In this document: positions 1,275 through 49,749 of the stretch, piece after piece
How positions within the stretch are numbered: the first letter of the stretch is position 1
Layout: each line of letters starts with the position of its first letter
The notes under the pieces: generated by a model
What the model was told of the DNA's origin: nothing
Seen by the model: the letters and a program-made list of their open reading frames with translations, nothing else
Databases searched by the model: none
Program-made: the position numbers and the translations under genes
Assembly: GCA_003389385.1 (NCBI GenBank)
Contig: QQVM01000017.1
Coordinates: 10,443-74,442, forward strand
DNA length: 64,000 nucleotides
Direction: 5' to 3'
From: Bacteroidota bacterium
Lineage (GTDB): Bacteria; Bacteroidota; Bacteroidia; AKYH767-A; 2013-40CM-41-45

Positions 1275-1910
1275 TTGGGCGTCAGTCTTTTATTTACCGT
1301 TGCCGGGAGCCCTTCCGGCAAAAAGACGCAAGGGATTCATCAATTATTTAATTTCTTAAAAATGGCAATAGATTATTGCGATCAGGACCCCTTGGGAGAA
1401 GCTGATGTAATTGCCTGTCCGAAAAATGACCTCGTCGGCGGTTTTTCTGCTCTTGTAATCCTGGAAGACGGACACACAGTGGAAGACCCCTCGAGCGCAT
1501 CCGAGATAAATGCAAACATCAACACCGGCCACGCACACGTGGTAAAACGCTGCTCATTGGCGGTGGATGCGGCCACTCCTGTCGAACAGGAGTCGCTCGT
1601 GCCGTGCGAGACCCCTTCGCTACTTACCTACGATCGCGGCGGTCCGTACATCAACCCGAATGTCACACCGAACAATGTTTCGTTTCACGACAGGCTCTTT
1701 GATGGACGCGTATTCCCGGCGATGATCATCGCAAACTGCGGACGTGACGGTGTGATTGAAAAGGTGTTGTTCATTCAGGGTCGCATCAAGCTGAAAGGCT
1801 CGTTGATCGCTCCGAAAAACAACAATGAATTCATGCGCTTTGAAGGCAGTTATGCTTACAAATCCAGCAAGAATCCGACGTTGCACGATGCACCTCAGGG
1901 CATCTTCTGA
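1275..1910 (+). CDS. Hypothetical prophage protein
   Basis: 211-aa ORF followed by a strong rho-independent terminator. Confidence 0.35.
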   Translation: MGVSLLFTVAGSPSGKKTQGIHQLFNFLKMAIDYCDQDPLGEADVIACPKNDLVGGFSALVILEDGHTVEDPSSASEINANINTGHAHVVKRCSLAVDAATPVEQESLVPCETPSLLTYDRGGPYINPNVTPNNVSFHDRLFDGRVFPAMIIANCGRDGVIEKVLFIQGRIKLKGSLIAPKNNNEFMRFEGSYAYKSSKNPTLHDAPQGIF

Positions 1911-1922
1911 TCTGAGTTTAAA

Positions 1923-1970
1923 AAGCGAAAGCCGGGCGATCACTTCCCAGGCTTTCGCTTAATTTTTATT
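1923..1970 (+). terminator. Rho-independent terminator
   Basis: Perfect 11-bp stem aagcgaaagcc / ggctttcgctt followed by a T-run (aatttttatt). Confidence 0.6.
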
Positions 1971-1975
1971 CAAAC

Positions 1976-4276
1976 ATGAACCAAGGCATTTTACTTCCTG
2001 CATTCGGTAAGCGCGGATATTATTTCGCGGCATACAACCTTGCCTTTTCCATTAAGCACTTCAACAAGGACATTCCCATTGCCATATTGCACGGCAATAA
2101 ATTAAAAAAAGAATTACACCTGCCCCACATGCACACCGTGTTCGATCACCTCATTGAATTGCCACAGGAGGTGATGATGATGGGGGGGCGAATGAATCCG
2201 GCTGCAGTGAAACTCTGGGCGAGCGATTACAGCCCATTTGAATGCACAATTCAACTGGACGTGGATGCGCTTGCGATGCAGGATTTATCAAGCATATTCG
2301 ATGAGCTACAAAGCGCAGGAGGGTCTTTTTATTCGCATGTACTAGACCATCATAAGATCGGATCGGGCGATGACATTTCGTTCATGAAATGGGCCAGCGA
2401 ATCCATCATTCAACAGAAGTACAATTTGCCAGAAGGCGCCATGCTTCCCGGCACAAACTCCTCGTTTCTTTATTACAAAAATGACGAGACAGGAAGAAAA
2501 ATATTTCAGCGGGCAAGAGAAAATTTCCTTGATCCCATCCCGCTTCAACAGCTGCAAATGCAGTGGGGCGGAAGCCAGCCCGATGAACTTTATTTGAACA
2601 TCGCTCTTGCGCAAGAAGGCGTCAATGCAAAAACCGAAAAGGATTATTTGTTTCTGGCAGACAAGATTTCCAATCAATCACTCTCGTGGATCAAGGATAA
2701 TTATCCGCTGCTATGCTTGTACGGACCTGGCAACCGACCTCGCTTGATGTATCTGGAATGGTACGACCGGATGCTGCATTCGATGCATTCTGCTAAAAAG
2801 CTGAATCATGTTTTCAAGCATCACACAATACTTTCAGACAAGTACGCTAATGCGCCAAGCACACCAAAGCAAGTGAAGCAAAACATCGCACCCGTTCAGC
2901 CTGTGATTGCAGAGCCCGTCGCAAAAAGACCGGAAAAAATTCGCCTGCACGTTCCTTTTTTTGAGGGAAACGATGCGCTGCGAAAAGCCGAGATACTTAC
3001 ATGCCTGCACGAGAATTTGAAATGCGAACAGATCGAAAGAATCTTTCTGTATAGCGAACATGATTTTTCCGACAAAGTGCTTTCCCTCCATGAAATGGGC
3101 AGCGGAAAATTATCGCTCATTCGTTTTTCAAACCGCCCGACATACAGGTCCATCATCGAGAGCATCAACAGTAACAAGCCGGCTAAATTTGACATTTCCA
3201 TCATAGCAAATGCAGATATCTTTTTTCAGGACACATACCTGAACATGATCAAGGATGTGAATTTCGATTCGCGCGCATTGGCATTGTCGCGCTGGGATTT
3301 AAAGAGCGCAGACATTTCCGGAGCGGACCATAATGCAAAGCATTTCAGTTATGAATACTCTCAGGACCCTTGGATTTTCAAAGGAAAAATCCCGGCAATG
3401 GACTGCGACTTTCCATTTGGCATTCCAGCTTGTGACAATCGCATGGCCTATGAAATGAAAAGGCATTTCACTCGAGTAGACAATCCATCCATCCAAATTA
3501 AAACCTTTCACCTGCATTTGTCAAACGAAAGAACATACAGCCAAGCAGACAGGCTGCCGGGCAATGTATCTCCGATCAAGCCCTCGCATTACGCTCCAAT
3601 CAAAAAAAAGCGAATGCTGATGATTCAAAAAGGAAAAGTCGGAGACGTGCTGCTTTGCCTTCCCATCGCACGGGCGTATGCAGACAGATACACGGTCCAG
3701 TGGTTGCTGCCAAAGCAATACCACTGTCTTTTTGATTATGTGGACTATGTCGCCCCGGTTGAGAGGGCACAAGGCAAATATGATTACACGCTTGACCTTT
3801 CGTTCGGACAGGGCGGAAAGCCAGAGCAGTGGTGGAGGCGCGAGAAAAGCGGATTCCGCTCTTTTGTCGACGCAAAGTATCATCTGGCAGGAATTGACGT
3901 GAACGAAAAAAATAACCTGGTCTATGACCGGGATTATAAAAAGGAGAATGCGCTGCTGGAAATTATCCGCCAGAAAATTGGTGCGGGAGAATTTGCACTA
4001 ATGCACACTCAAAGCGATTACGGAACGCCCGTGAAGGTCAAAAGCGCAATGGCTGCCCTGGAATTCTCACCCATCGAAGGGTACACAATTTTTGATTGGC
4101 GCAAAGTAATAGAACAGGCTGCCGAAATTCATTGTATCGATTCCTCGCTTTGCAATTTCGTTGATGCTATCCCAGAGGTGCGAGACATTCCAAAGACATA
4201 CTATCCGACCGACAAAGTCCCGAACATTTGGGATCGCACAATATTGACCAACAACTGGATCATTCAGGAAAACTAA
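1976..4276 (+). CDS. Multidomain glycosyltransferase, 766 aa, with a GT9 (heptosyltransferase-like) C-terminal domain
   Basis: The N-terminal region resembles a nucleotide-sugar transferase. The C-terminal part contains KVGDVLLCLPIARAYADRY, which matches the iGDvllttPalraL signature of ADP-heptose:LPS heptosyltransferase (GT9). Confidence 0.5.
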   Translation: MNQGILLPAFGKRGYYFAAYNLAFSIKHFNKDIPIAILHGNKLKKELHLPHMHTVFDHLIELPQEVMMMGGRMNPAAVKLWASDYSPFECTIQLDVDALAMQDLSSIFDELQSAGGSFYSHVLDHHKIGSGDDISFMKWASESIIQQKYNLPEGAMLPGTNSSFLYYKNDETGRKIFQRARENFLDPIPLQQLQMQWGGSQPDELYLNIALAQEGVNAKTEKDYLFLADKISNQSLSWIKDNYPLLCLYGPGNRPRLMYLEWYDRMLHSMHSAKKLNHVFKHHTILSDKYANAPSTPKQVKQNIAPVQPVIAEPVAKRPEKIRLHVPFFEGNDALRKAEILTCLHENLKCEQIERIFLYSEHDFSDKVLSLHEMGSGKLSLIRFSNRPTYRSIIESINSNKPAKFDISIIANADIFFQDTYLNMIKDVNFDSRALALSRWDLKSADISGADHNAKHFSYEYSQDPWIFKGKIPAMDCDFPFGIPACDNRMAYEMKRHFTRVDNPSIQIKTFHLHLSNERTYSQADRLPGNVSPIKPSHYAPIKKKRMLMIQKGKVGDVLLCLPIARAYADRYTVQWLLPKQYHCLFDYVDYVAPVERAQGKYDYTLDLSFGQGGKPEQWWRREKSGFRSFVDAKYHLAGIDVNEKNNLVYDRDYKKENALLEIIRQKIGAGEFALMHTQSDYGTPVKVKSAMAALEFSPIEGYTIFDWRKVIEQAAEIHCIDSSLCNFVDAIPEVRDIPKTYYPTDKVPNIWDRTILTNNWIIQEN

Positions 4277-4278
4277 TT

Positions 4279-4986
4279 ATGGCAATTCAAGATACTACAG
4301 GAGCATCCATAGCAGGCACGCAACTATACAATGACATACTTGCAGTTGCCATGGTGGCCGAAAACATGAAGTTCATTGAAGTAGGCGCAGGAATTGGAGA
4401 TGGCATTACTCGGGCACTTATAAGAGGAATGTTATCCAAGCCAAATGCCATGAATCCTGGCAGCGGGCTACAGTTGCATTGCATCGAATTGTCCGAAGAA
4501 AAGTATCAGTTGCTTCAAAGCGAGCTCTCTCCTTATGGTGTATTTTCTTTCGCGCACAATGGCGTGTCTGCCGACCTTAGCTGGTACATGAGCGAAGAGG
4601 CTGTACGCGAGTTTTATCATAGTAAAAAAACCAGGGCGAGCGAGCGGCCAGTTGAAGTAATTCTCAGTTCGCGATCAAAAGAGCTTGAATACATAGACAG
4701 TAAGGGAGAGAGCTTCAGTCAAAACATACTGAATGAAATTAAAGGGGTATATGGTATTCCAGACGTATTGGTGATGAATGGAAGTGAATTTACCTCTGTT
4801 CAGGAAATGGAATTGATGATTGGTGCTCGCTACATTGTTCTAATTCAGAATGACAATTTAAAGAATTATGACAATCACAATGCACTGCTTGGTTCTGAAA
4901 GCGGATACAGACTTGTGATCGAAGGTCAGAGCCGGTTAGGCGGATACTCAATATTTCGAATACTGGAGTTGGAGGAGGGCCCATGA
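4279..4986 (+). CDS. Class I SAM-dependent methyltransferase
   Basis: Motif I is IEVGAGIGDGITR (GxGxG Rossmann). I moved the start to the ATG at 4279, just after the upstream stop. The 3' end overlaps the next gene (ATGA). Confidence 0.5.
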   Translation: MAIQDTTGASIAGTQLYNDILAVAMVAENMKFIEVGAGIGDGITRALIRGMLSKPNAMNPGSGLQLHCIELSEEKYQLLQSELSPYGVFSFAHNGVSADLSWYMSEEAVREFYHSKKTRASERPVEVILSSRSKELEYIDSKGESFSQNILNEIKGVYGIPDVLVMNGSEFTSVQEMELMIGARYIVLIQNDNLKNYDNHNALLGSESGYRLVIEGQSRLGGYSIFRILELEEGP

Positions 4987-5651
4987 GACTTGCAGGTGAA
5001 ATAATGGCCGCGGGCATGACCTGTGTATCTGATCTGAAGCAAAAAATTTTCCAAATGGTCACGCAGGAGAAGCCAATGCGCATACTCGAGACCGGCACCT
5101 ATCTTGGCACTGGATCTACGCGTGCGTTCGTTGATGCGGCCATATCATCTGGGCATTCGCTACAATTTCATACAATTGAGGTAAACGAAGGGCACTTTGA
5201 ATTGGCTAGGAAAAATCTATCAGACGCACTATTAAATTTCAAATGTTCATTTTACATGTGGAATGGACTGAGTGTTCCTGCATCATTAATTCCCTCAGAA
5301 ATTGATGTTGATTTCCCGGAAAGCGTCATTACTGACTCCTTCGATGAATCATTTTATCATAATGAGATTGTTGGATTTATTCAGGACGATTGCATTTCAA
5401 AGGCCATATTGGCGATGGGAGGATTCCCAGACATGATACTGCTTGACTCCGCTGGCCACATGGGCACAATAGAATTTTGCCACCTTATGTCTCTGCATGA
5501 CGGCATCACCCCATTCACTTTGATTCTGGACGACACCATGCATCGAAAGCACTACAAAACGATGGAGCTGGTTCGCAAAGATAAATCATTTAAAATCTTA
5601 CATGAGTCTGAGTCAAAATTTGGCTTTGCAATTATTCAATTTAAACCATGA
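4983..5651 (+). CDS. SAM-dependent methyltransferase-like protein (CmcI/TylF-like O-methyltransferase fold)
   Basis: MRILETGTYLGTGSTRAF resembles motif I of CmcI-family O-methyltransferases. Translationally coupled to both neighbours. Confidence 0.4.
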   Translation: MRLAGEIMAAGMTCVSDLKQKIFQMVTQEKPMRILETGTYLGTGSTRAFVDAAISSGHSLQFHTIEVNEGHFELARKNLSDALLNFKCSFYMWNGLSVPASLIPSEIDVDFPESVITDSFDESFYHNEIVGFIQDDCISKAILAMGGFPDMILLDSAGHMGTIEFCHLMSLHDGITPFTLILDDTMHRKHYKTMELVRKDKSFKILHESESKFGFAIIQFKP

Positions 5652-6448
5652 AGCGAATCGCATTCACAATTATGTACAACGCAGCGCACCATCTGCGCCA
5701 TTGCGATTTTGCGCTAAAAATGATCTCCATGTTTGATCATTGGATCATTGCCGAAGGCTTTGCTGGCAACAAAGGGTCTACCAGCTGGTGCAATGAATTG
5801 AACTGCCCGATCAGGTCAATTGATGACACAATCAATTTGATCGGCGATTATGCCGATAAGCAATCTGAGTGCGTTCGCCTTGTCTCGCCGCGAAAGTGGG
5901 AAAGCAAAGATGAAATGGTGAACGCTTGCATCGATATAGCCAGAGATATTATTGACGGGCAGGACTGCTTCTTATGGCAGGTTGACGCGGACGAGCACTG
6001 GACTGATGATCAACTGTCCAGAAGCGAGAAGTCAATCATTGCCTCTTGCGCCGACACAGGCATGTTTTTGTGCAATTATTTCATAGGAGAAAATTTGATC
6101 GTACGCGGTCAATGGGGCGAAGGACTGATGACGCCATACCGCAGGTTATGGCATTGGAAGGGACAGCGTTTCGCATCGCATGAGCCCCCTATACTTTCTG
6201 GCGGCAACGGAAAAGAAATGCTTCTGCAAGAGCGATTCGATCATTATGCGTACTTCTTTGAACACGACGTGAAATTTAAAGCCATGTACTATAGTGGCCA
6301 TGAGCACGTGTATCGTAATTGGAAAAAAATTCAATCGGGATCTGTTAAATTTCCTGCGCCTATATCTACGCTTTTCTCAGGAAAAATGTTTTCCTCCACC
6401 AAATCAAGAATCTACCAAATCAAAAATCATGAGAAAGAGGCTATTTAA
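5648..6448 (+). CDS. Putative GT2-like glycosyltransferase
   Basis: The N-terminus RIAFTIMYNAAHHL resembles the GT2 start (IvIPvyN...L), and there is a DxD-like WQVDADEHW. Overlaps the upstream gene by 4 nt. Confidence 0.35.
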   Translation: MKRIAFTIMYNAAHHLRHCDFALKMISMFDHWIIAEGFAGNKGSTSWCNELNCPIRSIDDTINLIGDYADKQSECVRLVSPRKWESKDEMVNACIDIARDIIDGQDCFLWQVDADEHWTDDQLSRSEKSIIASCADTGMFLCNYFIGENLIVRGQWGEGLMTPYRRLWHWKGQRFASHEPPILSGGNGKEMLLQERFDHYAYFFEHDVKFKAMYYSGHEHVYRNWKKIQSGSVKFPAPISTLFSGKMFSSTKSRIYQIKNHEKEAI

Positions 6449-6552: not shown

Positions 6553-8442
6553 ATGCAGCAAGAAATCCAGCATATTAATTCCCTGCTCGAGCAGGCGAAG
6601 GCAAAAATTAAAAAAGGCGTCTCGATTAAGAAGTCTGTGAATGATGTAAGCGTTCGCGAGTACCAGGAATTTAATCCGCTTTATGCGCGCGCATGTCAGA
6701 TACGCGACAAGATCGCAGTGCACGCCGAAGGAGATGAGTTTCCGGAGCATCTATTTGTCGTTCGTGCCCCGCGCATGACAAAGGATGAATTTGATTACAT
6801 CAAATCCAACTACAAGAATGAAACGCGCCCGGTGTATCTGGATTTTTTCAATACCGTAATGAGAATTTTCCATGATAGCAACTGGTCAATCGACTGGCCC
6901 TCCTTTGATGAAGACGGTAATCCGCTTGCTCAATACATGGAGAATTTGCCCATCTACGGATCGGAGGAAACTTTTACGCGCGATATTGTCACGCACGCCA
7001 AGCTGACAGATGCCATGGGCGTGATCGTGGTAAAGCCGCGCACGATCAAAACAATTAAGAATGATCAGGGCGAGGAAGTGATCGATAACCGGGAAAGATT
7101 CGAGCCTCTGCCATATTATTTCCGATGCGATCAAGTGCTGTTTTACGAGGAAGGCGAGTATTACTTCCTTCTGTCTGACGAAAAATCAGAAGTAGATTAT
7201 GGTGGCCGAAAATCAAAAGAGGGTGTTGTATTCGAATATCACGACAAAAATCACTTTTACCGAATAGAGCAGTACGGGAGGAAAAGCGACTATAATTTCA
7301 GAGTCATCCATCAATATTCTCATAACTGGAACCGCGTTACAGTGCACCGATTAAAAGGTGTTCCACGTGTAACAAAAGATGGTGTGCTACATGTTTCTCC
7401 TTTTTATTTCGCAGTTGATATTCTTGATCTTGTCACATTGAATGCGACCAATCTGCAAACGATCATCAACAATGCAGCGTATCCGTATCGCATTGTCTAC
7501 GGCGATGAATGCGATTTTCAAATCACACTCTCGGACAATACTGAAGCCGCCTGTAACGGGGGAAAGATTTTCAATTCGGATTTGAATGCTACCATTACGT
7601 GTCCTTCCTGCAATGGCAGCGGGCTAAAAAGCAGACTCTCGCCTCTTGGTGTGATGATTATCCGTGCGCCAAGCACTGAATTCAAGGGTGATGCCGAACT
7701 CAAGCAAGATCCAATCAAATGGGTGGAGCCCTCGACCAATCAGCAGGATTTTTTAAAGAAAAAAATTGCAAGCGATGAAATTCGTGCGCGCAAAATCATA
7801 CACCTGCATTCTGGTAATTCGGAGGCCTCTGCCGGGCCGGACTTGGCTACGAAAATGGTCTTGGATTTAAAAGCCCTGTATGCATTTCTAAAGCCGATCT
7901 CTGATCAGATATTTGACCTCAAGTCTTTCATCATCTGCGCAAGTGGATGGATACGTTACGCCGAAGAATCAAAAAAAATGAATCCGGTGATTTCTTATCC
8001 GGTATCATATGACTTTAAAACCGAGACGGATTATATTTCGCAGATATCAGAAGCGATCAAGGCGGGACTTCCTCCGATGGTCATCCATTCAATCATGTTC
8101 CGGTTTTTACAGTCTCTTTACTACAACGAAAAGCGCACGGCAGACGTATTCTCGCTCATTGTTTCGGCAGACAGACTGCTCGTCTTTGATTCGCAAACCA
8201 TACAAAGCAAGATCAGGGACGGTCTGGCTGAAAAATGGGAGTCAGTGCTGCACGACAGCGCGATCATTTTCGTGAATGAGATGCTGATTGCAGAGCCGGA
8301 ATTCTTTGATAAATACAGCCCTGAAGAAAGGAAAGAAAAGCTGATCGAGGCGGCAAAGAAAAAGGCCGCAGACATTGAGGCCGCACGAAAAGCTTCTGCC
8401 GGAGCTTCGGCTCAGTCCCGCGTAAATGAAATCCTGAATTGA
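6553..8442 (+). CDS. Phage portal protein (putative)
   Basis: 629-aa protein directly upstream of a Mu-F-like head morphogenesis gene and overlapping it; no Walker A motif, which argues against terminase. The assignment rests on size and position. Confidence 0.45.
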   Translation: MQQEIQHINSLLEQAKAKIKKGVSIKKSVNDVSVREYQEFNPLYARACQIRDKIAVHAEGDEFPEHLFVVRAPRMTKDEFDYIKSNYKNETRPVYLDFFNTVMRIFHDSNWSIDWPSFDEDGNPLAQYMENLPIYGSEETFTRDIVTHAKLTDAMGVIVVKPRTIKTIKNDQGEEVIDNRERFEPLPYYFRCDQVLFYEEGEYYFLLSDEKSEVDYGGRKSKEGVVFEYHDKNHFYRIEQYGRKSDYNFRVIHQYSHNWNRVTVHRLKGVPRVTKDGVLHVSPFYFAVDILDLVTLNATNLQTIINNAAYPYRIVYGDECDFQITLSDNTEAACNGGKIFNSDLNATITCPSCNGSGLKSRLSPLGVMIIRAPSTEFKGDAELKQDPIKWVEPSTNQQDFLKKKIASDEIRARKIIHLHSGNSEASAGPDLATKMVLDLKALYAFLKPISDQIFDLKSFIICASGWIRYAEESKKMNPVISYPVSYDFKTETDYISQISEAIKAGLPPMVIHSIMFRFLQSLYYNEKRTADVFSLIVSADRLLVFDSQTIQSKIRDGLAEKWESVLHDSAIIFVNEMLIAEPEFFDKYSPEERKEKLIEAAKKKAADIEAARKASAGASAQSRVNEILN

Positions 8443-15397: not shown

Positions 15398-16522
15398 ATG
15401 AAGAATATTTTACAAAACAATGTGGTAGGATGGGCCGCTAGGCTTATTCTATTTTTCATACTGATTTGCATAGGCATCTCAATGGCAAGGTGTCAGACCC
15501 GTGACAGCATTGTCACCACAATCACCAATCATTCAAAGCAAGTGTGCTATGACAGCACATGGCAGACGGTGAAGGTGGATACCTTCAAAGTGCCTGTGAA
15601 TACAGTTGACGCCCCCATCAGAGGTATGTATGTCAGCACTCAGGTTAAGATTGGTGACATCGCATCAGAAGAAGCTTTCTTAAAGTGGTGCAAGAGCAAG
15701 GGTGTGAACATGGTAAATTTCTATGCTCGCAGCTTCTTATACGATTCATCCAAGCGTTCACAGCTTGCTGCTTTTGTGAAGAAAGCAAAAGAGCAGTACG
15801 GAGTGCTGGCCGTCACGGTAGATGTAAGGCTAACCGATAATCGGGAATACCCCGGATGGGTGGCATACTTTGAGAAGTACAAGGGCACTTCATCCATGAT
15901 AGAACCGCTGGCAGAATTTGAGCCTTATTCATCCAGCATGGGCCAAAGCTCAGACGTGTACTTCGCAAGCTATACCGATAAATACGCTCACTTTTTCATG
16001 ATGCTACGCAAAATGTCTGAGCTGACTAAGCAGTATGGTGTTAAGTGGAATTGGTATCAGGGATGGGTGGGTAATAAATATCTATCAGGATCGGAGAGCG
16101 ACATTCAGAAGGCGAATGATTCCCTTGTGAAGTATGTGGATCGGGTGTTCGTATCAAACTACGTTTCCAAATCAGATTACATCAGTACCAATCCCTCTTA
16201 CGGTGCTTGGGATAACCGCATGGACAAGCGACTAGAACGCATTGCTTTGGGTATGGCTAAGATGAGGCCGGGAGCTAAAATGGATATTGTGGAAATTGTT
16301 TCACTGGAACTCAAGAAGTGGGGAGCTGGAAATGACTTCTTAGGTGAAGTATATGCTTGTCCGGTGAACACTACTAATATGTGTCATTCATTCTACGGAA
16401 GCAGGTATGACAAGGCAGTGGAGGAGTACAATAAATCATCTGCAAACATATTGAAATATACAGTCCTTGTTGGACGGACAATGTTTTACCAAAAGTACGC
16501 TGTATTGGCGCAGCCAAACTAA
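15398..16522 (+). CDS. Membrane-anchored hypothetical protein (possible glycoside-hydrolase-like TIM barrel)
   Basis: N-terminal TM helix (LILFFILICIGISMA); 374 aa; W/Y-rich and secreted-enzyme-like, but no confirmed motif. Confidence 0.35.
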   Translation: MKNILQNNVVGWAARLILFFILICIGISMARCQTRDSIVTTITNHSKQVCYDSTWQTVKVDTFKVPVNTVDAPIRGMYVSTQVKIGDIASEEAFLKWCKSKGVNMVNFYARSFLYDSSKRSQLAAFVKKAKEQYGVLAVTVDVRLTDNREYPGWVAYFEKYKGTSSMIEPLAEFEPYSSSMGQSSDVYFASYTDKYAHFFMMLRKMSELTKQYGVKWNWYQGWVGNKYLSGSESDIQKANDSLVKYVDRVFVSNYVSKSDYISTNPSYGAWDNRMDKRLERIALGMAKMRPGAKMDIVEIVSLELKKWGAGNDFLGEVYACPVNTTNMCHSFYGSRYDKAVEEYNKSSANILKYTVLVGRTMFYQKYAVLAQPN

Positions 16523-16524
16523 CC

Positions 16525-17205
16525 TTGTTTCATGTGGAAATCTACAATTTCATCCTTAAACACAAAGACTTTATTTCAGGTCTTGTTGGAGTTGCAACAC
16601 TGTATGTTTTATATAAATCGAACATTCATAAGCACATAATAATGTTCTGGAAAAGCAGAATAGAGCCTAAGATGTGGGTGTCGGCGAAAGTAATTAATAG
16701 CAACCTTTCTGAGATGAAAGAGATGATTGCTACTTCGATCGAAAACCAGAATAAGCTTTCGTCTGCGATTAAGGAACTGCACGCCGATTATCAGGAAGTT
16801 AAGAATATGGTAGCTCCCAATGGGGGAAGCAGTTTGATAGACCTTGCAAACTGGCTTTATGCAAAATCAATAGCGCAGGACTTCGATAATGAAGCGGCAA
16901 TACTGGCCCAGGCGAATAAATCAGGGCACTTAATGAATGTGAATAGAATGTTCACAAGAGTCACAGGGCGCACCGAAGGAGAACTAATTGGCAACGGATG
17001 GGTGAATGCGATTGTCGGGCAGGACAGGCAAAGAGTCATACATGAATGGAAGGATGCGCTGGCGGAGGGGAGAGATTACCTGAGTGAGTTTTCCTTATCA
17101 GACCTTGATGGAAATGAATCGGCGGTAGAGGCTCGTTTCAGCAGAATGTACGACAAGAAGGGGAATGTACTTGGTTATTACGTCAGGATGCACTTAATAG
17201 GTTAA
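16525..17205 (+). CDS. PAS-domain protein
   Basis: C-terminal region HLMNVNRMFTRVTGRTEGELIGNGWVNAIVGQDRQRV matches the PAS core (reaction ... GW ... hP ... D). Confidence 0.5.
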   Translation: MFHVEIYNFILKHKDFISGLVGVATLYVLYKSNIHKHIIMFWKSRIEPKMWVSAKVINSNLSEMKEMIATSIENQNKLSSAIKELHADYQEVKNMVAPNGGSSLIDLANWLYAKSIAQDFDNEAAILAQANKSGHLMNVNRMFTRVTGRTEGELIGNGWVNAIVGQDRQRVIHEWKDALAEGRDYLSEFSLSDLDGNESAVEARFSRMYDKKGNVLGYYVRMHLIG

Positions 17206-18009: not shown

Positions 18010-18492
18010 ATGATTATCACACAGCAACGGTTTAAGTGGACGGATACATCCACGCTATCGCAATGGTTCATTGACGGGGAAGCAAATTTCTATTCGAACA
18101 AATACGACAAGATGCTTCCGGTGTACGCGCTGGAAGACAAAGACCGCGACTTGCACTCCTACATGACAGATGCAGAGGTGCGAAAAGTAAAAGTCCATGG
18201 CGAAACTGCAATCCCGTACGGAAAATTCAGAGTGATCATGTCATTTTCTGCAAGGTTTAAAAAGATCATGCCAGAGGTGATCGGAGTCCCTGGATTTTCA
18301 GGAATTAGAATTCACAATGGATCGTTAGTCACTCATACAGAAGGGTGCCCTCTGATTGGGTACAAACATCATTATATGCCTGACAAAGATCAGTTCTGGG
18401 TGTCGCAGTCAAGGGACTGCTTTGCTGAAATCATGTCGATGCTGAACATCGCAAATGAAAAAGAAAAAATGTTTTTAGAGATCATCAAATGA
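18010..18492 (+). CDS. Endolysin candidate with an H-x7-TEGC motif (uncharacterised His/Cys domain)
   Basis: 160-aa soluble protein directly upstream of the spanin-like pair. It contains IRIHNGSLVTHTEGCPLIG, and the same motif occurs in the RHS-tip domain at 41682-42281. Confidence 0.4.
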   Translation: MIITQQRFKWTDTSTLSQWFIDGEANFYSNKYDKMLPVYALEDKDRDLHSYMTDAEVRKVKVHGETAIPYGKFRVIMSFSARFKKIMPEVIGVPGFSGIRIHNGSLVTHTEGCPLIGYKHHYMPDKDQFWVSQSRDCFAEIMSMLNIANEKEKMFLEIIK

Positions 18493-19108: not shown

Positions 19109-20338
19109 ATGAAAAAATTAACCTGGTCAACCAAGACCGTGAAGGTGAAAGACCTTAAACCATTTGAAATAAACCCAAGAAAAATATCGGATGAAAAAAG
19201 GCAGAAGTTAATACAAAGCCTTGAAAAGTTTGACTTGGCGGAAATCCCTGCCGTAAATACGGACATGAAAATAATCGGAGGCAATCAAAGAATTGCAGCC
19301 CTTGTGTTACTTGACAGGGGCGATGAGCTGATCGATGTTCGTGTCCCGAGCCGTAAGCTATCGGAGAAGGAGGTCAAAGAATACAATCTGATTAGCAACA
19401 CCCATGCAGGTGAATGGGACTTTGAAATACTGGACATGGAGTTTTCGGATATAGATTTGGAGGATATCGGATTTGATATTCATGGGCTTCAAAGTTGGAA
19501 TTTAGCGCAAAATCAGCAAATGGCATCAGGAGTGGAGGATGATGATTTTGACGTGCCGCTTGGCGGGTCAAATACCGATATTGTTGAGGGCGACATCTTT
19601 GATATAGGCCGACATCGCCTGATGTGTGGCAGCAGCACCCAGACCGATACGTGGGAGCGGTTAATGGGGCAGGAAATGGCCGACCTTGTAATAACCGACA
19701 CACCTTACAATGTAGCTTATGTCGGAAAGACGAAAGATGCCATGAAAATTCAAAATGATGCCCAATCGGATGGCAATTTTTACCAATTCCTTTATGACTT
19801 ATATACGGCTCTCGGAAGTTACACGAAAAAGGGGGTGGCTTGGTATGTTTGGCACGCTGATTCTGAAGGGGCGAATTTCCGCAAAGCAATGGCTGATTCA
19901 GGGATAATGGTAAAACAATGTTTAATTTGGGTAAAAAATAGCCTGGTGATGGGGCGACAGGATTACCATTGGGCGCACGAGCCATGCCTTTACGGATGGA
20001 AAGAAGGCGCGGCTCACAAATGGTATTCAGATCGGAAACAAACAACCGTTTTAAACTTTGACAGGCCGTCAAGGAATGCCGAACATCCGACCATGAAGCC
20101 GGTTCCGCTTATTGCTTACCAGATGGGCAACAGCAGCAAGGCAGGAGACATAGTGTGCGATGGGTTTGGAGGAAGTGGTACGACAATGGTTGCCGCACAT
20201 CAAATGAATAGAACATGCAGGATGATGGAGCTTGACCCGAAATACTGTCAGGTAATCATTGACAGAATGATCAAGCTCGATCCAGCAATCGAAATAAAAA
20301 GAAACGGTAAATCATGGAACTCACAGAAGAATTCCTAA
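19109..20338 (+). CDS. ParB-like nuclease domain fused to a DNA N6-adenine/N4-cytosine methyltransferase
   Basis: N-terminal ParB/Srx-like region (KDLKPFEINPRK..GGNQRIAAL). Methylase motif IV is ITDTPYN (DPPY-like) and motif I is DGFGGSGTT. Confidence 0.7.
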   Translation: MKKLTWSTKTVKVKDLKPFEINPRKISDEKRQKLIQSLEKFDLAEIPAVNTDMKIIGGNQRIAALVLLDRGDELIDVRVPSRKLSEKEVKEYNLISNTHAGEWDFEILDMEFSDIDLEDIGFDIHGLQSWNLAQNQQMASGVEDDDFDVPLGGSNTDIVEGDIFDIGRHRLMCGSSTQTDTWERLMGQEMADLVITDTPYNVAYVGKTKDAMKIQNDAQSDGNFYQFLYDLYTALGSYTKKGVAWYVWHADSEGANFRKAMADSGIMVKQCLIWVKNSLVMGRQDYHWAHEPCLYGWKEGAAHKWYSDRKQTTVLNFDRPSRNAEHPTMKPVPLIAYQMGNSSKAGDIVCDGFGGSGTTMVAAHQMNRTCRMMELDPKYCQVIIDRMIKLDPAIEIKRNGKSWNSQKNS

Positions 20339-20744: not shown

Positions 20745-21848
20745 TTATGTCCGAAACTTTTTAAATTCTGCATCCATCAGCGGATTGGTGACCTTGGCAT
20801 AGATGGCTACGGTGCGCCGAGATATGCCCATGTATTCGGCCACGACATCCGAGGTAATGCCAGATTCCAGGCAGCGCACAGCAAAGGTATGCCTGCCCAC
20901 GTGTGATGTGATGGGCATATCAATCTCCGGATTACACATTTTTGCAATCGCTTTCAAATTTTCGTTTACGGTTGGCTCCGCAGGACAGGGCCTCATATGA
21001 AGTAGCTTTTCTGTGAGCTGTTTCAATTTATCATGCATCTGAAGGGATACCAGTTGGCCGTTCTTTTTTGCGCGAAGAATCAAGCGATCTTCCCGTATAA
21101 ATTCGGAAGAAAACCTGAGCCAGTCTGAGATGCGAAGCCCGCTGTAGCATCCCAAAAGGAAGTACATGCCGGAGACTAGCATTGTTTCGCTCATGGGAAG
21201 CTTCAGTGCGCGCTCCCATGCCTGTACCTGCGAAAGCGTAAGATGTATCCGATCCGGATTTTGGTATTTGGGCATAGGATACTTTTTGAATGGGTCTTCG
21301 CTTGTCAACCTATTATGCATGGCATCCAGATATACGGTGCGCATTTTTTTCCAAAGCTTATGAATTGTGTTTCCCTCAAGCGGCACCCGGGCAAGGTGCT
21401 GATGAAACAGCGCAAGCCAGCGCGGTGTAATGCCGTGCAGAGTAATGGATTTATCAAACTCCTGAATTCTGGCCAATGCCTGACGGTACGTGTCCAGGGT
21501 GCTGCCCTCCAGCACATCTCTCTTTCCGTCGATATATCCGGAAAAGTACTCGCAGAAACTCCGGTTCACGCCCTGGATGAAATCCGGCGTCACCGGTACG
21601 TCCATCAGCTGCATTCGCCGAATTTCCTGCTCGATTTCGGAAATCCTTTTTTTGATCTTCAAATTGATCATCTGATGCTGCGGATGACTCTTTCGAACTT
21701 CGCTGCCAGTCCAATCATCCGGTGAAATGAATTCATTCAATGACTTGACAATTCGCTTTCCGGATATCCTGATAATGATTTTCAAGGCCCGCTTGCCCTC
21801 TTTGTTCTTGCCGCCCATCAGCCGCGGATGTATCGTAACTTTCTGCAT
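20745..21848 (-). CDS. int: Tyrosine-type site-specific integrase
   Basis: C-terminal catalytic residues HVGRHTFAV and IYAKV (R-H-R-Y family). The start is trimmed to the ATG at 21848, because the longer ORF runs into the tRNA (the translated tRNA gives GFESRPDR). Confidence 0.8.
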   Translation of the reverse strand: MQKVTIHPRLMGGKNKEGKRALKIIIRISGKRIVKSLNEFISPDDWTGSEVRKSHPQHQMINLKIKKRISEIEQEIRRMQLMDVPVTPDFIQGVNRSFCEYFSGYIDGKRDVLEGSTLDTYRQALARIQEFDKSITLHGITPRWLALFHQHLARVPLEGNTIHKLWKKMRTVYLDAMHNRLTSEDPFKKYPMPKYQNPDRIHLTLSQVQAWERALKLPMSETMLVSGMYFLLGCYSGLRISDWLRFSSEFIREDRLILRAKKNGQLVSLQMHDKLKQLTEKLLHMRPCPAEPTVNENLKAIAKMCNPEIDMPITSHVGRHTFAVRCLESGITSDVVAEYMGISRRTVAIYAKVTNPLMDAEFKKFRT

Positions 21849-21990
21849 CGCCCTGTAGTGTGGCCACGCTGTAGCTACAGGGTGTAGCCAAATTCGTAGC
21901 CGTAAAGTGTCGGAAATGTAAATATTTGCCGGATAATAAACGCTATAAAATAGAAAATCCCGCGAAAAAGCGGGATTTGAACTAATTAAG

Positions 21991-22064
21991 CGGTCCGGAC
22001 GGGACTCGAACCCGCGACCCCATGCGTGACAGGCATGTATTCTAACCAACTGAACTACCGAACC
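21991..22064 (-). tRNA. tRNA-Asp (GTC)
   Basis: Cloverleaf folded by hand: acceptor GGTTCGG/CCGGACC, anticodon stem CATGC/GCATG with loop CTGTCAC, T-arm GCGGG-TTCGAGT-CCCGT; 74 nt with no encoded CCA. Confidence 0.75.
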
Positions 22065-41204: not shown

Positions 41205-42281
41205 AACAGTAAGATTGCTAAAGTCAGGATTGTCTGTAGTCCATATTATCCCGAAGCTAGCGGTGCTTTGCAAGCCGAGCATCCAAATGTAATTGGAGAG
41301 CTTGCAATTACAGAATTAAAAATACGTAAAAAGGGTTATCTTTATGTCTATGTAAACAACAGCAGCGTGAAGCCTGTCTTTTTTGATAACCTCATCATCT
41401 CACATACGAGCAGTAAATTGCTGGAAGAAAATAATTATTATCCTTTTGGGATGTTGTGGAAAGCGCCAATTGGTGATAATAAGTATAAATACAGCGGAAA
41501 GGAAATTCAAACGGAGTTGGATTTATTTACTCAGGATTATGGAGCGAGATATTATGACCCTGCTATTGGAAGGTTTGGGACTGTTGACCCCTTAGCACAC
41601 AAAATGCCAGCTTGGTCGCCTTACTCATTTTGCAACAATAACCCAATCCGCTACATTGATCCTGATGGCCGAGCCCCTTAAGAATATGACGTTGATAAAA
41701 ATACCGGACAGATTAAAGTCGTTAGCGATAAAGGCGGGAACCAAACCGATTACTTCAATATAGGTACAACCAATGAACAAGGAAACTTTGTAACCGATCA
41801 AACAATTTCCACTGAGAGGGGAACAGGTAGTATTAACTCGTTCAGGTTTACAGAGACAAGTCAGTCTACTATCAGCACTTTTGTGATACCACAGGAGGGG
41901 AAAGACGTTACAGGATTTTTCTTAGAGCCAGCAGGCCCAAGCACTACTGTTGCTAATCAAGATCAACGAATACCGGAAGGAACTTATAATATTGAAAATT
42001 ATTCAAGCCAAAAGTATCCGAGTAATTTTAGGATATTTAACAGTGATGTTTCTAATGAGAGGAAAATTTTATTGCATATAGAAAATTTCCCTTCCAATAC
42101 TGAAGGATGTTTACTTTGTGGCGAAACTTTCGGAAAGGATTTTGTTGGAGGACCTCGCATTAATGGGGAAGGCGGAAGTTTTAGAAAGTTCAAAGAGATA
42201 AAAGGCTTCCTTAGCCAAAAGGGGCCAGAAAATGTTAAGTTCAATATCTTCAATGTTATACCTGATAAAGAAAAAAAGTAG
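41205..42281 (+). pseudogene. Orphan RHS-repeat C-terminal core plus toxin domain, with an in-frame TAA at 41679-41681 and no ATG start
   Basis: YD/RHS core end motifs are present (GARYYDPAIGRFGTVDP...IRYIDPDGRAP). The same frame stays open from 41205 to 42281 apart from the single TAA placed right after DPDGRAP. The downstream 200-aa domain contains HIENFPSNTEGCLLCG. Confidence 0.55.
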
Positions 42282-42285
42282 CCCC

Positions 42286-42930
42286 ATGAAATTAATTTCT
42301 ACTTTATTGCTGTTTTGTATGGGATTTACTTCTTGTCACTCTCAAAGCCAAGACATGCAGAATTGCGCAGCTATTAAAGAGCAGGCAAGCGCATTGAATA
42401 AATATGCTCAACAAGCGATTAGTGGCAACGTGGAAAAAAAGACGGAAGCTCTAACACACTTTTTTAAATCATTCCCCAATAATTTTAAAACATTCTATAG
42501 AATTTATGGTAATGACGATAAATCTGCAGATACGTGTTTACTTAAGGTTAGCAATGATTATATGTTATTCACGCTCCTGCCCGAATTAAAAAAAGCTATT
42601 CCCACCAATGAATACTATAAAAAAATGATACAGGTTGGAATCGGTGGGCATTGGGAAGCAGATGAAGTAGCAGCATTGCAGCATCATTTACAAGAGATAG
42701 TACCTGAAAACATAAAGCTTAGCGTTGATCTTCTAAAAGAGTACGAGGAAAAGCAAATAAAATCCTTCTGGCGTTTTTTTTATGATGGCCCTCATCCAGA
42801 CGACCCTGAGATTAAAAAACTATATGGCAGTTTGTATCCTAAAATCTCTCAAATTAATCCGAAGGTATCGGATTCAATGAAACAGGCCTACGATCAATTG
42901 TTAGCGGAAGATGATGGACACGGCCATTAA
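42286..42930 (+). CDS. Lipoprotein, candidate immunity protein
   Basis: Lipoprotein signal MKLISTLLLFCMGFTSC; immediately downstream of the toxin domain, overlapping its end. Confidence 0.4.
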   Translation: MKLISTLLLFCMGFTSCHSQSQDMQNCAAIKEQASALNKYAQQAISGNVEKKTEALTHFFKSFPNNFKTFYRIYGNDDKSADTCLLKVSNDYMLFTLLPELKKAIPTNEYYKKMIQVGIGGHWEADEVAALQHHLQEIVPENIKLSVDLLKEYEEKQIKSFWRFFYDGPHPDDPEIKKLYGSLYPKISQINPKVSDSMKQAYDQLLAEDDGHGH

Positions 42931-42992
42931 AAAAAAATTTTTTAAGCGTTACAAGCCACGATCCAGGGTCTGAAGCAGGCGGTACTGACCAG

Positions 42993-43229
42993 TTGTACAA
43001 AAAATTGATAAAAAATTATACTGTTAGAGAGCTAATCCATAGCCATCCGGATATAAGTACTGGCATTTACGGACCTTCTGGTTTTCTTCCACAAGACGAA
43101 AATGATGGTGATAGACGACTTGCAGAATGGAAAAATACTTATTTTCCAAAAAGCGGAGTAAAATTAAAAGTTTATGCGGTGCCAATAAAGAAATACATTG
43201 AGTACAACCACAATGGAATAGTAAAATAA
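42993..43229 (+). CDS. Possible second orphan toxin-tip fragment (HSHPD-containing)
   Basis: 78-aa ORF with a TTG start and an open frame upstream (..SHDPGSEAGGTDQ..); no confirmed domain. Confidence 0.2.
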   Translation: MYKKLIKNYTVRELIHSHPDISTGIYGPSGFLPQDENDGDRRLAEWKNTYFPKSGVKLKVYAVPIKKYIEYNHNGIVK

Positions 43230-43230
43230 T

Positions 43231-43755
43231 ATGATGTTCAATCGATTAATAATCTGTTTAATTGTCTTCCTGTGGAATTTTTCAGGTTGTAAGGCAAATC
43301 AGGAAAATGAGCTTAATATGCTAACGGTAAAGGATGCACAAATAAATGATGCGCTTAAAGTGCTTGTAAAAGAGGAGTCCGAATACAGAAACCTTGGAAA
43401 AAGTGCCATTATCTTTAAAATTGAAAAGTCAGAAATTGGTTATGAAATACGAATTGGGACATTGTTCAAAGAAAGTCTAAGCTTGTATTTAAGAGAGAAA
43501 AAAGATAAACCGTTTGGATTCTTTAAGTTTGAGAATGTTACGGTTATAGTATTTGGAGAAGAAGATAGGTTGCTCTTTGAAAAGACCAACAATACAAAAA
43601 ATCTTACTTTTCTTGAACCAAAGTCAGAATTGAAAGTTAAAGAAGGGGAAATTCCACCACCTCCCGTAATTTATGAGCCTGTGGTTTGGATTTACACTTA
43701 TGAAAATGGAAAACTCAAACCAACTGAGAAAGGCAGATTTGCACTACTGAAATGA
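43231..43755 (+). CDS. Lipoprotein, second candidate immunity protein
   Basis: Signal with lipobox (LWNFSGC); starts 2 nt after the preceding fragment. Confidence 0.35.
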   Translation: MMFNRLIICLIVFLWNFSGCKANQENELNMLTVKDAQINDALKVLVKEESEYRNLGKSAIIFKIEKSEIGYEIRIGTLFKESLSLYLREKKDKPFGFFKFENVTVIVFGEEDRLLFEKTNNTKNLTFLEPKSELKVKEGEIPPPPVIYEPVVWIYTYENGKLKPTEKGRFALLK

Positions 43756-43934
43756 AATAGAAATCCGGCAAATCAGGTTTTTTAAAATGCCTAAAAATTA
43801 GCATTGCTGTTCAGGAGGTCTTTCTGTAAGCTTCCCTGATAATCAGACAATGATATAGTGTTTAATTCTATATTCTGAATTTTTCTTCAAATTCAACAAT
43901 CTTCAATAAATCTTCGATGAAATAGTTAGATATT

Positions 43935-44002
43935 CGGGGTGTTCGGGCTACTTACACAGAGTTAGTGCATAGAACGAGTGAACAGGTTTGTCTGTTCACT
44001 CG
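43935..44002 (+). repeat. Right copy of the 68-bp perfect direct repeat
   Basis: Same 68 bp as 40875-40942, including a second copy of the terminator hairpin. Confidence 0.7.
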
Positions 44003-44550
44003 TTTTGTTTTCGGCATTGTCATTTTAGCTTATAGCCTATGCGGATGTTTTATCCAAGTGCTTGATCATGATATCTTGTCTTTTCGAAATTACTTCTCAG
44101 TGCGCAATTCAATCAATTTCAAAAATGCAATCAATCCAGAAAGCAAGTTCAGGCATCATCTCATTAAAACTATGTCCTGGTAAATTTCAATTCAGAAAAT
44201 TTACAATATTATCGCCCATATTCTAATCTAAATCACCGAAAAAAGTATTCAAGCTTTTAAGAGAGAATATAAATTTAAAGTATGCATTTATGTTGGCCCA
44301 GTTGAGTATTGGATGAATGTAGCGGCTCAATTTAGTTTCATTTCTATGTGTACATTATTCCACAATTGTGGATAATGATTCCGGTTTTACAGTCAAATAT
44401 TTGCGATTTTTTAATTTAAAAGTTGAAAAATTGAGGTTTTATGGATTTGTTTCCAATTCATTTTTTATGGTATGGTCTTTTCTCTCATGTTGCGAAATGG
44501 TTAAAATATTTCTAAAGCCATATTGATTAAAAAAATGTCTAATCTAAAAA

Positions 44551-45420
44551 ATGAATCTTATGAAAAAGTATCTGATTTTATTTATACCCCTTGCCATGCT
44601 TACTGCTTGCCAGGATTATAAAGCGGAAATTGAAAAACTGAAAAGCGAAAAAGAAATGTTAGTGGAATCTGCTTCCTACCGTGATTCCACCATTAACTCA
44701 TTTCTACAGTCATTTAATGAGATTGAAGCAAACCTGGAAGAAATTAGTCAAAGACAAGCTGATATATCCGACCAATCTGGTCCTGGAGAATTGAAGAAAT
44801 CCCAGGTGGATCGAATTCGTGAGAATATTGCTGCCATCAACACCTTGATGAAAGACAATAAAGATAAGCTCGCACAATTAAGTAAGCAACTTAAATCATC
44901 GAATTTTAAATTGAAAGAGTTGGAGAAAATGTTGGCTTCTTACAATGAGCAATTGGAAGAAAAGAATCAACAACTCGCCTTGGTGAATGAGGAGTTATCT
45001 AAGATGAAGGTGCAAGTTGAAAGTTTGAATACACAGTTAGTTGTACTCAATGATGATAATCTCCTGAAGCAATCTACGATTGAAACGCAGGTGAAAGAAC
45101 TCAATAAAGCCTTTGTTGTAACAGGTACAAGTAAACAACTTGAGGAGCAACAGGTAATTGTGAGGACCGGCGGATTTCTTGGCATTGGCAAAGAGGAGAA
45201 ATTGAATAGTGATATTAATCGTGGTGCATTTAATGCGATTGATATTACTCAAACTAATGTTATTCCTCTTGAAGCGAAGGATGTGGAGTTGCTGACTTAT
45301 CATCCGGAAGACAGCTATGATATAAAATACAATGGGAAAGAAGCTGACGAATTGGTCATCACTGATCCGAAAAAGTTCTGGGAAGGTTCCCGTTATCTCG
45401 TGGTCATGATTGACAAGTAA
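44551..45420 (+). CDS. Coiled-coil lipoprotein (hypothetical)
   Basis: Lipobox PLAMLTAC; long heptad-like Glu/Lys/Leu-rich region. Confidence 0.4.
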   Translation: MNLMKKYLILFIPLAMLTACQDYKAEIEKLKSEKEMLVESASYRDSTINSFLQSFNEIEANLEEISQRQADISDQSGPGELKKSQVDRIRENIAAINTLMKDNKDKLAQLSKQLKSSNFKLKELEKMLASYNEQLEEKNQQLALVNEELSKMKVQVESLNTQLVVLNDDNLLKQSTIETQVKELNKAFVVTGTSKQLEEQQVIVRTGGFLGIGKEEKLNSDINRGAFNAIDITQTNVIPLEAKDVELLTYHPEDSYDIKYNGKEADELVITDPKKFWEGSRYLVVMIDK

Positions 45421-45540
45421 TTAATTATTGTGATTTGCATCATCAGCTCGTTGTGATATAAGGAACATGAAAATCCCGGGTTGATGATGCAAATTATTGA
45501 CAGCTTCAATATCAATTCAAAATTATAAACTGACGAAGTC

Positions 45541-46218
45541 ATGAAATATTCAAAATCTTATATGGGACAACTGTTCAGTATTTTACTGGTTATACTCTTA
45601 GTCTTTCATTCTGCATATTCATTTGCACAACTAAACGGAAGTACCATAGGTATCAAGGCCGGTATGAATGTTATGTCAATAAAGATTAAAGAATTCGATG
45701 AGAAGGAGAACAGGATTGGATACCACTTTGGCGGTTTTTCAAGATTACAACTCACAGAGTCATTTTCTATTCAGCCTGAATTATTATTTTCTAACGCAGC
45801 AACCACGGTGACTTATACAGGCACTATAGGAGGAAATCAGACTTCCGACCGTCTTGCAGTTCGCCTCAATTATGCAGACATACCTGTTATGGCGGCAATA
45901 AATATTACATCAAAGCTTAGCCTCCAGGGAGGATTATATGGTTCATATCTGATTAGTACAAATTCAGATAAGTCATCAACAAACAATACTTCCCAATCCG
46001 AATCAAAACCAGTTAATACATCACAATTTAACCGCGTGGATGCAGGATGGTTGGGAGGAGCTTCATTGGACTTTGGTTCTATGAATTTTGGAGTAAGATA
46101 TCTTAAAAGTTTTAACTCAGTGGGAGACTCAGGTAGTGATTCGATAGGCTTTTTATATAACTTTCCTGATGGACAGCGAGAGGCATGGCAGGTTTATGTA
46201 GGCCTGAAATTCTTCTGA
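45541..46218 (+). CDS. Small outer-membrane beta-barrel protein (porin-family-like)
   Basis: Signal peptide, alternating hydrophobic pattern, ends in an aromatic residue (LKFF). Confidence 0.45.
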   Translation: MKYSKSYMGQLFSILLVILLVFHSAYSFAQLNGSTIGIKAGMNVMSIKIKEFDEKENRIGYHFGGFSRLQLTESFSIQPELLFSNAATTVTYTGTIGGNQTSDRLAVRLNYADIPVMAAINITSKLSLQGGLYGSYLISTNSDKSSTNNTSQSESKPVNTSQFNRVDAGWLGGASLDFGSMNFGVRYLKSFNSVGDSGSDSIGFLYNFPDGQREAWQVYVGLKFF

Positions 46219-46296
46219 TTCCCCTCCAGAAGCCATGTGTCAGCCTCTGACTTTCATTTAAGATGAATGCCTGAATACACCGCAGAAGCAGAAGCA

Positions 46297-48303: not shown

Positions 48304-48326
48304 AAAAAGAAGTTCAATTTAATAAT

Positions 48327-49745: not shown

Positions 49746-49749
49746 GTTA

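Follow-up and report, generated by a model that had tools for sequence, protein, structure and literature searches.

Multi-GT, single-chain glycan synthases, in which several glycosyltransferases (GTs) share one polypeptide, are already known from giant algal viruses. For example, A111/114R of PBCV-1 is a single viral polypeptide with three transferase domains of ~300 amino acids (aa), which builds the capsid-protein glycan without host machinery; its D2 has been modelled on K4CP, and A064R includes a methyltransferase domain (PMC7826918). In tailed phages, GTs of mycobacteriophages (Che8-type) put glycans on capsid and tail-tube subunits (Freeman 2023, as reported in PMC12619734). The hosts of these phages are Actinobacteria, and the GTs are separate single-domain proteins. 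To our knowledge, mycobacteriophages provide the only established virion glycosylation among tailed phages. Here, the gene GT766 is described from a 64,000-nucleotide (nt) window of a Bacteroidota bacterium (contig QQVM01000017.1, positions 10,443 to 74,442; assembly GCA_003389385.1). Its 766-aa product appears to be a fusion of three GT modules (D1, D2, and D3) built on a conserved phage GT8-like core and lying inside a variable glyco-cassette of a prophage. As in A111/114R, three GT domains would stand in one viral chain; this likeness is one of architecture only, PBCV-1 being a eukaryotic giant virus whose enzyme has other domain families (GalT/XylT/FucT) and no GT9-like module. The mycobacteriophage system resembles the present one by description, in that the GTs are phage-encoded, and virion glycans in the present phage would be a matter of inference.

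Domain composition of GT766

The open reading frame (ORF) listing confirms both the 766-aa ORF (Table 1) and the motif GKVGDVLLCLPIARAYADRY that the first-pass annotation had quoted from it, which occupies aa 553–572 (nt 3632–3691) within the C-terminal 29% of the protein. GT766 is a real, conserved gene and no chance reading frame, because an identical sequence is on deposit, annotated as hypothetical protein, from a Bacteroidetes metagenome-assembled genome (MAG; contigs up to 413 kb) and ~63 full-length homologues occur in metagenomes, with 34–51% identity and E down to 2e-251. Conservation was measured over 62 of these homologues, in which at least 90% conservation is reached at 120 positions. 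Single-sequence searches with the 766-aa protein brought no usable result from Pfam, PHROG, NCBIfam, or PDB, so that the analysis had to turn to profiles and predicted structures. The AlphaFold2 model built on the 62 homologues has a mean pLDDT of 92.5, with values below 50 at residues 297–306. Partial homologues delimit three modules empirically (1–~300, ~320–540, and ~545–766), and map and model thus agree with the three-domain architecture proposed earlier. Conservation is similar among the modules (mean top-residue frequency 0.56–0.60 each), and the linker at 297–320 has zero conserved residues and a mean of 0.36. In the model, all three modules adopt predicted GT folds with intact catalytic-type motifs, and the residues D95, D97, N412, D414, G556, D557, and D722-S-S are invariant or nearly so.

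The first module, D1, resembles glycogenin. Its family profile matches PDB glycogenin-1 (E=3.9e-4) with the DxD motif D95-V-D97 (nt 2258–2266) aligned to the D-A-D of glycogenin, and Foldseek gives 2.7e-8 with TMt 0.52–0.60; a further conserved stretch is QPDELYLN at 201–208. The aligned DxD, the fold, and the GT-A topology are common to D1 and the GT8 enzymes (glycogenin, the xylosyltransferase domain of LARGE1, and the WaaJ/LgtC type). On the other hand, D1 is only 13–15% identical to glycogenin, phage-specific, and conserved beside the portal gene, and the curated GT8 model PF01501 does not reach it (one of 62 members, E=0.0035). PF11051 likewise stays below its threshold (E=0.077, 12.8 bits versus a cut-off of 22). 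D1 would therefore be described best as a GT8-like, metal-dependent GT-A enzyme, probably retaining, with D95 and D97 as its DxD residues.

The second module, D2, is a predicted GT-A domain as well. At the position of the DxD motif it has N412-A-D414 (nt 3209–3217), immediately after a strand at 406–411 according to DSSP of the model, and Pfam yielded only singleton sub-threshold matches to GT-A-type families among the 62 homologues. Elsewhere, D2 homologues stand alone, are duplicated, or are fused to GT2; one stand-alone homologue of 236 aa adjoins a nucleotide-sugar epimerase gene in the Synechococcus phage (cyanophage) S-SKS1. The best Foldseek matches of the full model are dual GT-A enzymes, namely LARGE1 (1.8e-12), K4CP, PmHS2, CHSY3, and LH3, with E from 1.8e-12 to 1e-8 over 530–730 aligned columns at 9–11% identity. 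As in GT766, two tandem GT-A domains share one chain in these proteins, and the first domain of LARGE1 is likewise GT8. These structure matches, together with the D1 profile, bear out the proposal that the N-terminal two-thirds hold two nucleotide-sugar transferase domains. The known dual GT-A enzymes polymerise alternating disaccharides, whereas GT766 adds a third, GT-B module and is accompanied by separate methyltransferase genes; because of these two additions, a defined, capped oligosaccharide can be inferred as the product rather than a polymer. The protein, which had been called processive, would then be better termed multifunctional, working together with the products of four neighbouring genes.

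The third module, D3, had been described as a heptosyltransferase-like (GT9) domain, of which the fold and the motif stand and family membership does not. The AlphaFold2 model of D3 alone (pLDDT 95, pTM 0.90) has two small Rossmann-like lobes, with four strands in the N-lobe and four to five in the C-lobe. Its top Foldseek match in PDB is the GT9 protein 3tov from Veillonella (E=1.9e-6, TMq 0.62) and the fourth is E. coli heptosyltransferase II WaaF, 1psw (E=2.6e-4); the remainder are other GT-B enzymes. In addition, hhalign of the D3 family against a thin GT9 profile of six sequences aligned D3 residues 3–68 at 92.1% probability (E=6.1e-7). The six comprise WaaC (100% identical to 2gt1_A), 3tov, two PF01075 proteins, and the GT9 domains of two D3 relatives, P0180 and P0161; seeding from P0180 yielded only two homologues, which were supplemented with the PDB-verified WaaC and 3tov. 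The alignment sets the invariant G556-D557 (nt 3641–3646) on G12-D13 of WaaC/HepI, so the resemblance of the quoted motif to the GT9 signature is more than chance. In HepI, D13 is the proposed catalytic base, D13A brings a 4,688-fold loss, and D261 and K192 also matter for catalysis (PMC5713226). A secondary, collinear alignment, individually non-significant (E=0.087, probability 0.7%), places D722-S-S-L-C-N727 on D261-T-G-L-S-H266; D722, S723, and S724 (nt 4139–4147) are invariant. Because Foldseek and profile–profile results both point to a GT9-like GT-B, with solved GT9 structures closest, the C-terminal region did not turn out to have a non-GT fold.

By library criteria, in turn, D3 appears to be GT9-like and to fall outside the GT9 family. 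PF01075 is absent from D3 in the window protein, in the 62 full-length homologues, and in 103 wider D3 relatives; neither NCBIfam nor Pfam has a model covering the domain in those 103, and the D3 profile found zero matches among PDB sequences. Two of the 103 (P0161 and P0180) do match PF01075, and these matches were rejected as proof of membership, as they fall on separate N-terminal, full-size GT9 domains. With 224 aa versus ~320–350 aa, D3 is about one third shorter than GT9 enzymes, both lobes being trimmed relative to the full six-stranded form. D3 and the GT9 proteins WaaC/HepI (2gt1), WaaF, and 3tov, which have ~326–349 aa, share the two-lobe GT-B fold and the N-terminal strand/G-D/helix motif; D3 differs in its setting, a multi-GT phage protein and not a lipopolysaccharide (LPS) core operon. 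A precedent for such trimming is offered by TibC/AAH (BAHT), which are WaaC-related GT-B enzymes with an N-lobe sheet cut to four strands that glycosylate proteins in the cytoplasm (PMC4358343). The four-stranded N-lobe of D3 is likened to TibC by fold description, TibC being a trimmed heptosyltransferase-like fold with a protein as its acceptor; it differs from D3 by an extra beta-barrel, an iron-finger, and dodecamers, and no TibC entry is among the top 50 Foldseek matches of D3.

The D3 family is large. In an exhaustive HMMER search, 2,123 clusters were within E<=1e-3, of which 879 reached E<=1e-10. Stand-alone proteins of 220–250 aa are frequent among the members, and others are fused to GT2, S-adenosylmethionine (SAM) methyltransferase, CmcI, FkbM, or B12-binding radical-SAM domains. 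In P0180 (1068 aa) and P0161 (907 aa), a canonical GT9 domain, a mini GT9-like D3, and a GT-A domain are present in one chain, and therefore the two GT9-type modules should be functionally distinct and not redundant. Whatever the acceptor, D3 would thus reveal a large family of GT9-like mini GT-B domains of ~225 aa without a public model, which could help to annotate polysaccharide loci and serve glycoengineering as a minimal scaffold. As a separate observation, the D3-type mini GT-B is fused to B12-binding radical-SAM (PhpK-like methyltransferase) domains in P0192, P0195, and P0218, and further relatives carry queuosine-synthesis-like, CmcI, or FkbM domains.

Not every fold in GT766 need be an active enzyme. 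One or more domains might be a non-catalytic scaffold or a carbohydrate-binding module, fewer sugars than domains being transferred; for instance D3, lacking a third of the GT9 fold, might only bind acceptor or nucleotide. This idea is compatible with any of the readings of the cassette given below and is in our opinion improbable. It draws on the size of D3 (224 aa versus ~330 for GT9), on the fact that no lysine equivalent to HepI K192 was identified in D3, on the non-significance of the C-lobe alignment to GT9 when taken alone, and on the N-x-D of D2 in place of the canonical D-x-D. LH3, one of the matches of the full model, contains a non-canonical accessory GT-A domain. Against it, D3 is the most conserved domain of all (mean 0.60; 51 positions with at least 90% conservation), and its invariant residues fall on the GT9 catalytic positions, G-D and D-S-S. 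Stand-alone D3 is moreover found in hundreds of clusters, and a purely accessory role is therefore hard to reconcile with its distribution. If all domains are catalytic, D3 would be a minimal GT9-like GT-B enzyme that probably inverts and needs no metal, D557 serving as general base and D722 binding the sugar. GT766 as a whole would be a soluble, cytoplasmic, tri-functional GT fused from three modules known as independent proteins: D1 in 37 related loci, D2 in S-SKS1, and D3 in the many short proteins mentioned above.

Genomic position and the candidate acceptor

GT766 lies within a prophage that extends past the left edge of the window, because a tyrosine integrase abuts tRNA-Asp and all content to its left is phage-like; the integrase/tRNA-Asp junction is likely the attachment site and the right end of the prophage. 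The order along the contig is terminase, small genes, tape-measure gene (947 aa, phrog_991), genes for proteins of 661 and 648 aa, orf182, GT766, orf235, orf222, orf266, portal, and head genes, the ORF at 6–1226 being the C-terminus of the 648-aa protein. Relatives are encoded on 168 IMG/VR contigs, and the description of GT766 as phage-encoded was thus correct. In 75 of the 80 related viral loci over which synteny was counted, the portal gene comes immediately after the gene containing D1, and in most relatives only 10–25 nt, without a terminator, separate the latter gene from the one upstream. Either D1 stands alone (~300 aa, 37 loci) or the full D1-D2-D3 form is followed by a methyltransferase and orf266 (38 loci), these being the two main architectures. 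GT766 is therefore best read as a fusion on the conserved GT8-like core. Rare versions in which D1 is fused to GH130 (PF04041) are accompanied by aminotransferase, acetyltransferase, and GT2 genes. The identity of D1 plotted against that of the portal, as a measure of vertical co-inheritance, gave rho=-0.11 over a narrow identity range. BFVD matches for single modules come from further phages and from giant viruses (other GT-like proteins of PBCV-1, pithovirus, and cedratvirus). In one related phage (locus L008, 10001–16164), the slot is filled by a D1-GH130 fusion, downstream of which come genes of the Methyltransf_24, hexapeptide acetyltransferase, DegT-type aminotransferase, and GT2-like kinds; this content suggests another sugar chemistry, with amino or acetamido sugars.

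Tentatively, and with not quite an even chance in our estimate, the cassette glycosylates a virion protein, either the product of orf182 or a capsid or tail subunit. GT766, the putative methyltransferase orf235, the COMT-type O-methyltransferase orf222, and orf266 would assemble ~3–4 sugars, some of them O-methylated, stepwise on one acceptor. The cassette would be a fixed part of a morphogenesis block (tail genes, orf182, cassette, portal, head genes) in uncultured Bacteroidota siphophages of ~35–50 kb, expressed late and glycosylating a virion component. Late expression and a virion target are suggested because the cassette has a fixed place in the structural block, with the short, terminator-free spacing just described in most relatives, and a virion acceptor is favoured because viral precedents exist (A111/114R of PBCV-1 and the virion glycans of mycobacteriophages).

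The same enzymes might instead modify an intermediate of a host envelope glycan on the cytoplasmic side, in a form of lysogenic conversion or receptor masking. Candidate targets are lipid A-core, O-antigen or capsule units linked to undecaprenyl pyrophosphate, and the general O-glycan of Bacteroidota; the altered surface would let the lysogen or infected cell resist superinfection or immune recognition. This explanation, which we consider rather unlikely and yet a serious contender, agrees with the integrated state of the window copy and with the variable cassette content across related phages, as expected for surface-glycan diversification. GT8 and GT9 are moreover hallmark LPS core families (PMC5713226), and in this respect a host-glycan target fits equally well. 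The cassette lies right behind the tail genes, the classic position of a moron, with a terminator-like hairpin before the GT gene in this genome. As a precedent, TarP of S. aureus is a soluble, prophage-encoded GT acting on a polymer of the host. On the other hand, the GT8-like gene behaves as a core gene and not as a sporadic moron, because it keeps the same place in nearly all of the viral loci examined. The spacing in most relatives speaks in the same direction, and the cassette lacks a flippase and any GtrA/GtrB-like, Wzy-like, or other membrane protein: no 19-residue window with a Kyte–Doolittle mean >1.6 occurs in the cassette proteins or in that of orf182, and no matches to Gtr-type components (GtrA flippase, GtrB, serotype-specific membrane GT, Wzy/Oac-like) were found with Pfam, PHROG, or NCBIfam. 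Close relatives are also nearly absent from 185,579 bacterial genomes, each representing a species, in which a scan with strict patterns returned only two MAG contigs. If the target is nevertheless the host envelope, the cassette would represent a soluble, Gtr-independent lysogenic conversion.

The hairpin deserves a closer look. Its RNA fold has -25.9 kcal/mol (z=-5.9; 0 of 200 shuffles equally stable), and a comparable structure is present in only ~5 of 36 related loci. The idea of an insulated moron, which the hairpin had suggested, was rejected on this lack of conservation. A scan for sigma-70 promoters and terminators, whose scope does not include Bacteroidota promoters, showed no enrichment.

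Several observations nonetheless weigh against virion glycosylation. Late expression is read from gene order, and the host copy is a prophage, so that expression during lysogeny is possible. In the window, the strong terminator-like hairpin parts orf182 from the GT gene, as it would for an independently regulated moron. No Ser/Thr-rich acceptor tails were found in the structural proteins, and orf182 has no relatives in PDB (profile search) or in cultured phages.

A very improbable third explanation is that the GTs glycosylate modified bases of the phage DNA as a protection against restriction, as in the T-even phages and in other phages that hypermodify their DNA with glycans. DNA is a frequent target of phage GTs, and DNA glycans of several sugars are known (Pyle 2024, cited in PMC12619734); the beta-glucosyltransferase of T4 is a GT-B enzyme (referenced in PMC5713226), and the prophage also encodes a ParB–DNA methyltransferase fusion. 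Nevertheless, no hydroxymethylase, thymidylate-synthase-like, or other base-modifying gene was seen across the prophage part of the window (22 kb) or the 10 kb upstream, the element is temperate, and the cassette lies in the structural and not in the replication block. The COMT/CmcI-type O-methyltransferases and the GT8/GT9-like folds also point to glycan substrates.

Virion glycosylation, if it is the function of the cassette, might be a trait of a whole lineage. In the most extended form of this reading, which we hold with more doubt than belief, an uncultured Bacteroidota siphophage lineage would possess a modular virion-glycosylation system in which orf182 and a GT8-like core are paired beside the portal gene, one branch having been expanded by D2/D3 fusion and O-methyltransferases. 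A methylated oligosaccharide would be placed on the orf182 protein or on a subunit of capsid or tail, and D3 would be a new GT family and the smallest functional GT-B known. A conserved, modular glyco-cassette in the morphogenesis block of Bacteroidota phages from the environment would, if true, extend virion glycosylation to a second, ecologically dominant phylum, with the orf182–GT8 pair among the concrete, clonable candidates.

Neighbouring genes and other features of the window

Table 1. Position and strand in the window of GT766, its predicted modules, and the features around it.
Feature	Position	Strand	Basis or remark
orf182, conserved 182-aa protein, upstream partner of GT gene	1362–1910	+	homologues immediately precede the D1 gene in 69 of the 80 loci
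Hairpin, 11-bp perfect stem (1923–1933/1950–1960), then U-rich run	1923–1970	+	terminator- or attenuator-like, 6 nt before GT ATG
GT766, predicted tri-modular glycosyltransferase gene	1976–4276	+	ATG start, stop codon included, 766 aa
D1 (aa 1–296), GT8/glycogenin-like GT-A domain	1976–2863	+	profile and Foldseek versus glycogenin
Linker (aa 297–320), poorly conserved, predicted disordered	2864–2935	+	pLDDT <50 at 297–306
D2 (aa 321–542), second GT-A-fold domain without library family	2936–3601	+	Foldseek of full model, DSSP topology
D3 (aa 543–766), compact GT9-like GT-B domain	3602–4273	+	D3-only AlphaFold2 model, Foldseek, hhalign
orf235, putative class-I SAM methyltransferase	4279–4986	+	E-V-G-A-G-I-G-D-G motif (GxGxG); weak assignment
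orf222, COMT-type (family 3) SAM-dependent O-methyltransferase	4983–5651	+	4-nt overlaps with both neighbours
orf266, fourth GT-A-like protein	5648–6448	+	W-Q-V-D-A-D-E (DxD-like) motif
Portal protein gene, 629 aa, downstream edge of glyco-cassette	6553–8442	+	tblastn and synteny
Tyrosine integrase	20745–22049	-	phrog_1, 3.8e-25; 5' end overlaps tRNA-Asp
tRNA-Asp (GTC)	21990–22064	-	abuts integrase

The genes of the cassette are tightly packed, GT766 and orf235 being separated by a 2-nt gap that is followed by two 4-nt overlaps. Upstream of them, the orf182 protein has conserved C82 and C126 and a C-terminal P-x-G-(I/V)-F, and it could be the acceptor or the partner of the GT. A second terminator-like hairpin (1262–1284, + strand) follows the 648-aa tail gene and, with the hairpin of Table 1, brackets orf182.

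Downstream, the two methyltransferase genes differ in their distribution. Homologues of orf235, a protein with zero library matches, occur in only two of the 80 loci, whereas orf222 is present in 36. The family profile of the latter matches catechol and other O-methyltransferases in PDB (E=6.6e-6), and the best Pfam families of its members (Methyltransf_24, CmcI, and Methyltransf_3) are all below threshold. In loci L001 and L008, this position is taken by Pfam-annotated methyltransferases, to which neither protein has any pairwise similarity. Methylation of the glycan by these two proteins would accordingly be a prediction from their families. The last gene, orf266, is present in 38 of the 80 loci and matches by BLASTP (E=1e-14) the C-terminal domain (795–1026) of P0180, a GT9 + GT-A + D3 + orf266-like megafusion, which suggests a Rosetta-stone link between orf266 and D3-type modules.

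The portal gene was identified by tblastn, in a distant match to the protein annotated as portal in Polaribacter phages P12002L/S, and its orthologue in L008 matches the portal family phrog_7376 (7e-22). The protein contains at aa 333–367 a CxxC...CxxCxGxG-like stretch with weak matches to Anti-TRAP and DnaJ zinc-finger models, which may be a zinc-ribbon insertion.

Other genes of the prophage lie further to the right, all on the + strand. A 374-aa protein (15398–16522) without a family match has a hydrophobic, lipoprotein-like N-terminus (LILFFILICIGISMARC) and may be secreted or lysis-related. Next to it, a 226-aa protein (16525–17205) has a PAS domain (PF08447, 2e-10), a sensory domain that is unusual in the late or accessory region of a phage. 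A DUF5675 protein (PF18925, 5e-18) is encoded at 18010–18492, and the 409-aa fusion of a ParB-like N-terminal part with a DNA methyltransferase (phrog_498, E=1.6e-132) at 19109–20338, beside the integrase.

Finally, the right two-thirds of the window are Bacteroidota chromosome, with genes for prolyl-tRNA synthetase, a sigma-54 response regulator and a histidine kinase, and proteins with the sorting domain of the type IX secretion system. On this host side, the region 42000–52000 has a G+C content of 0.35–0.37 versus 0.40–0.48 elsewhere in the window; it contains the sigma-54 two-component pair and small ORFs, and may be another acquired island.

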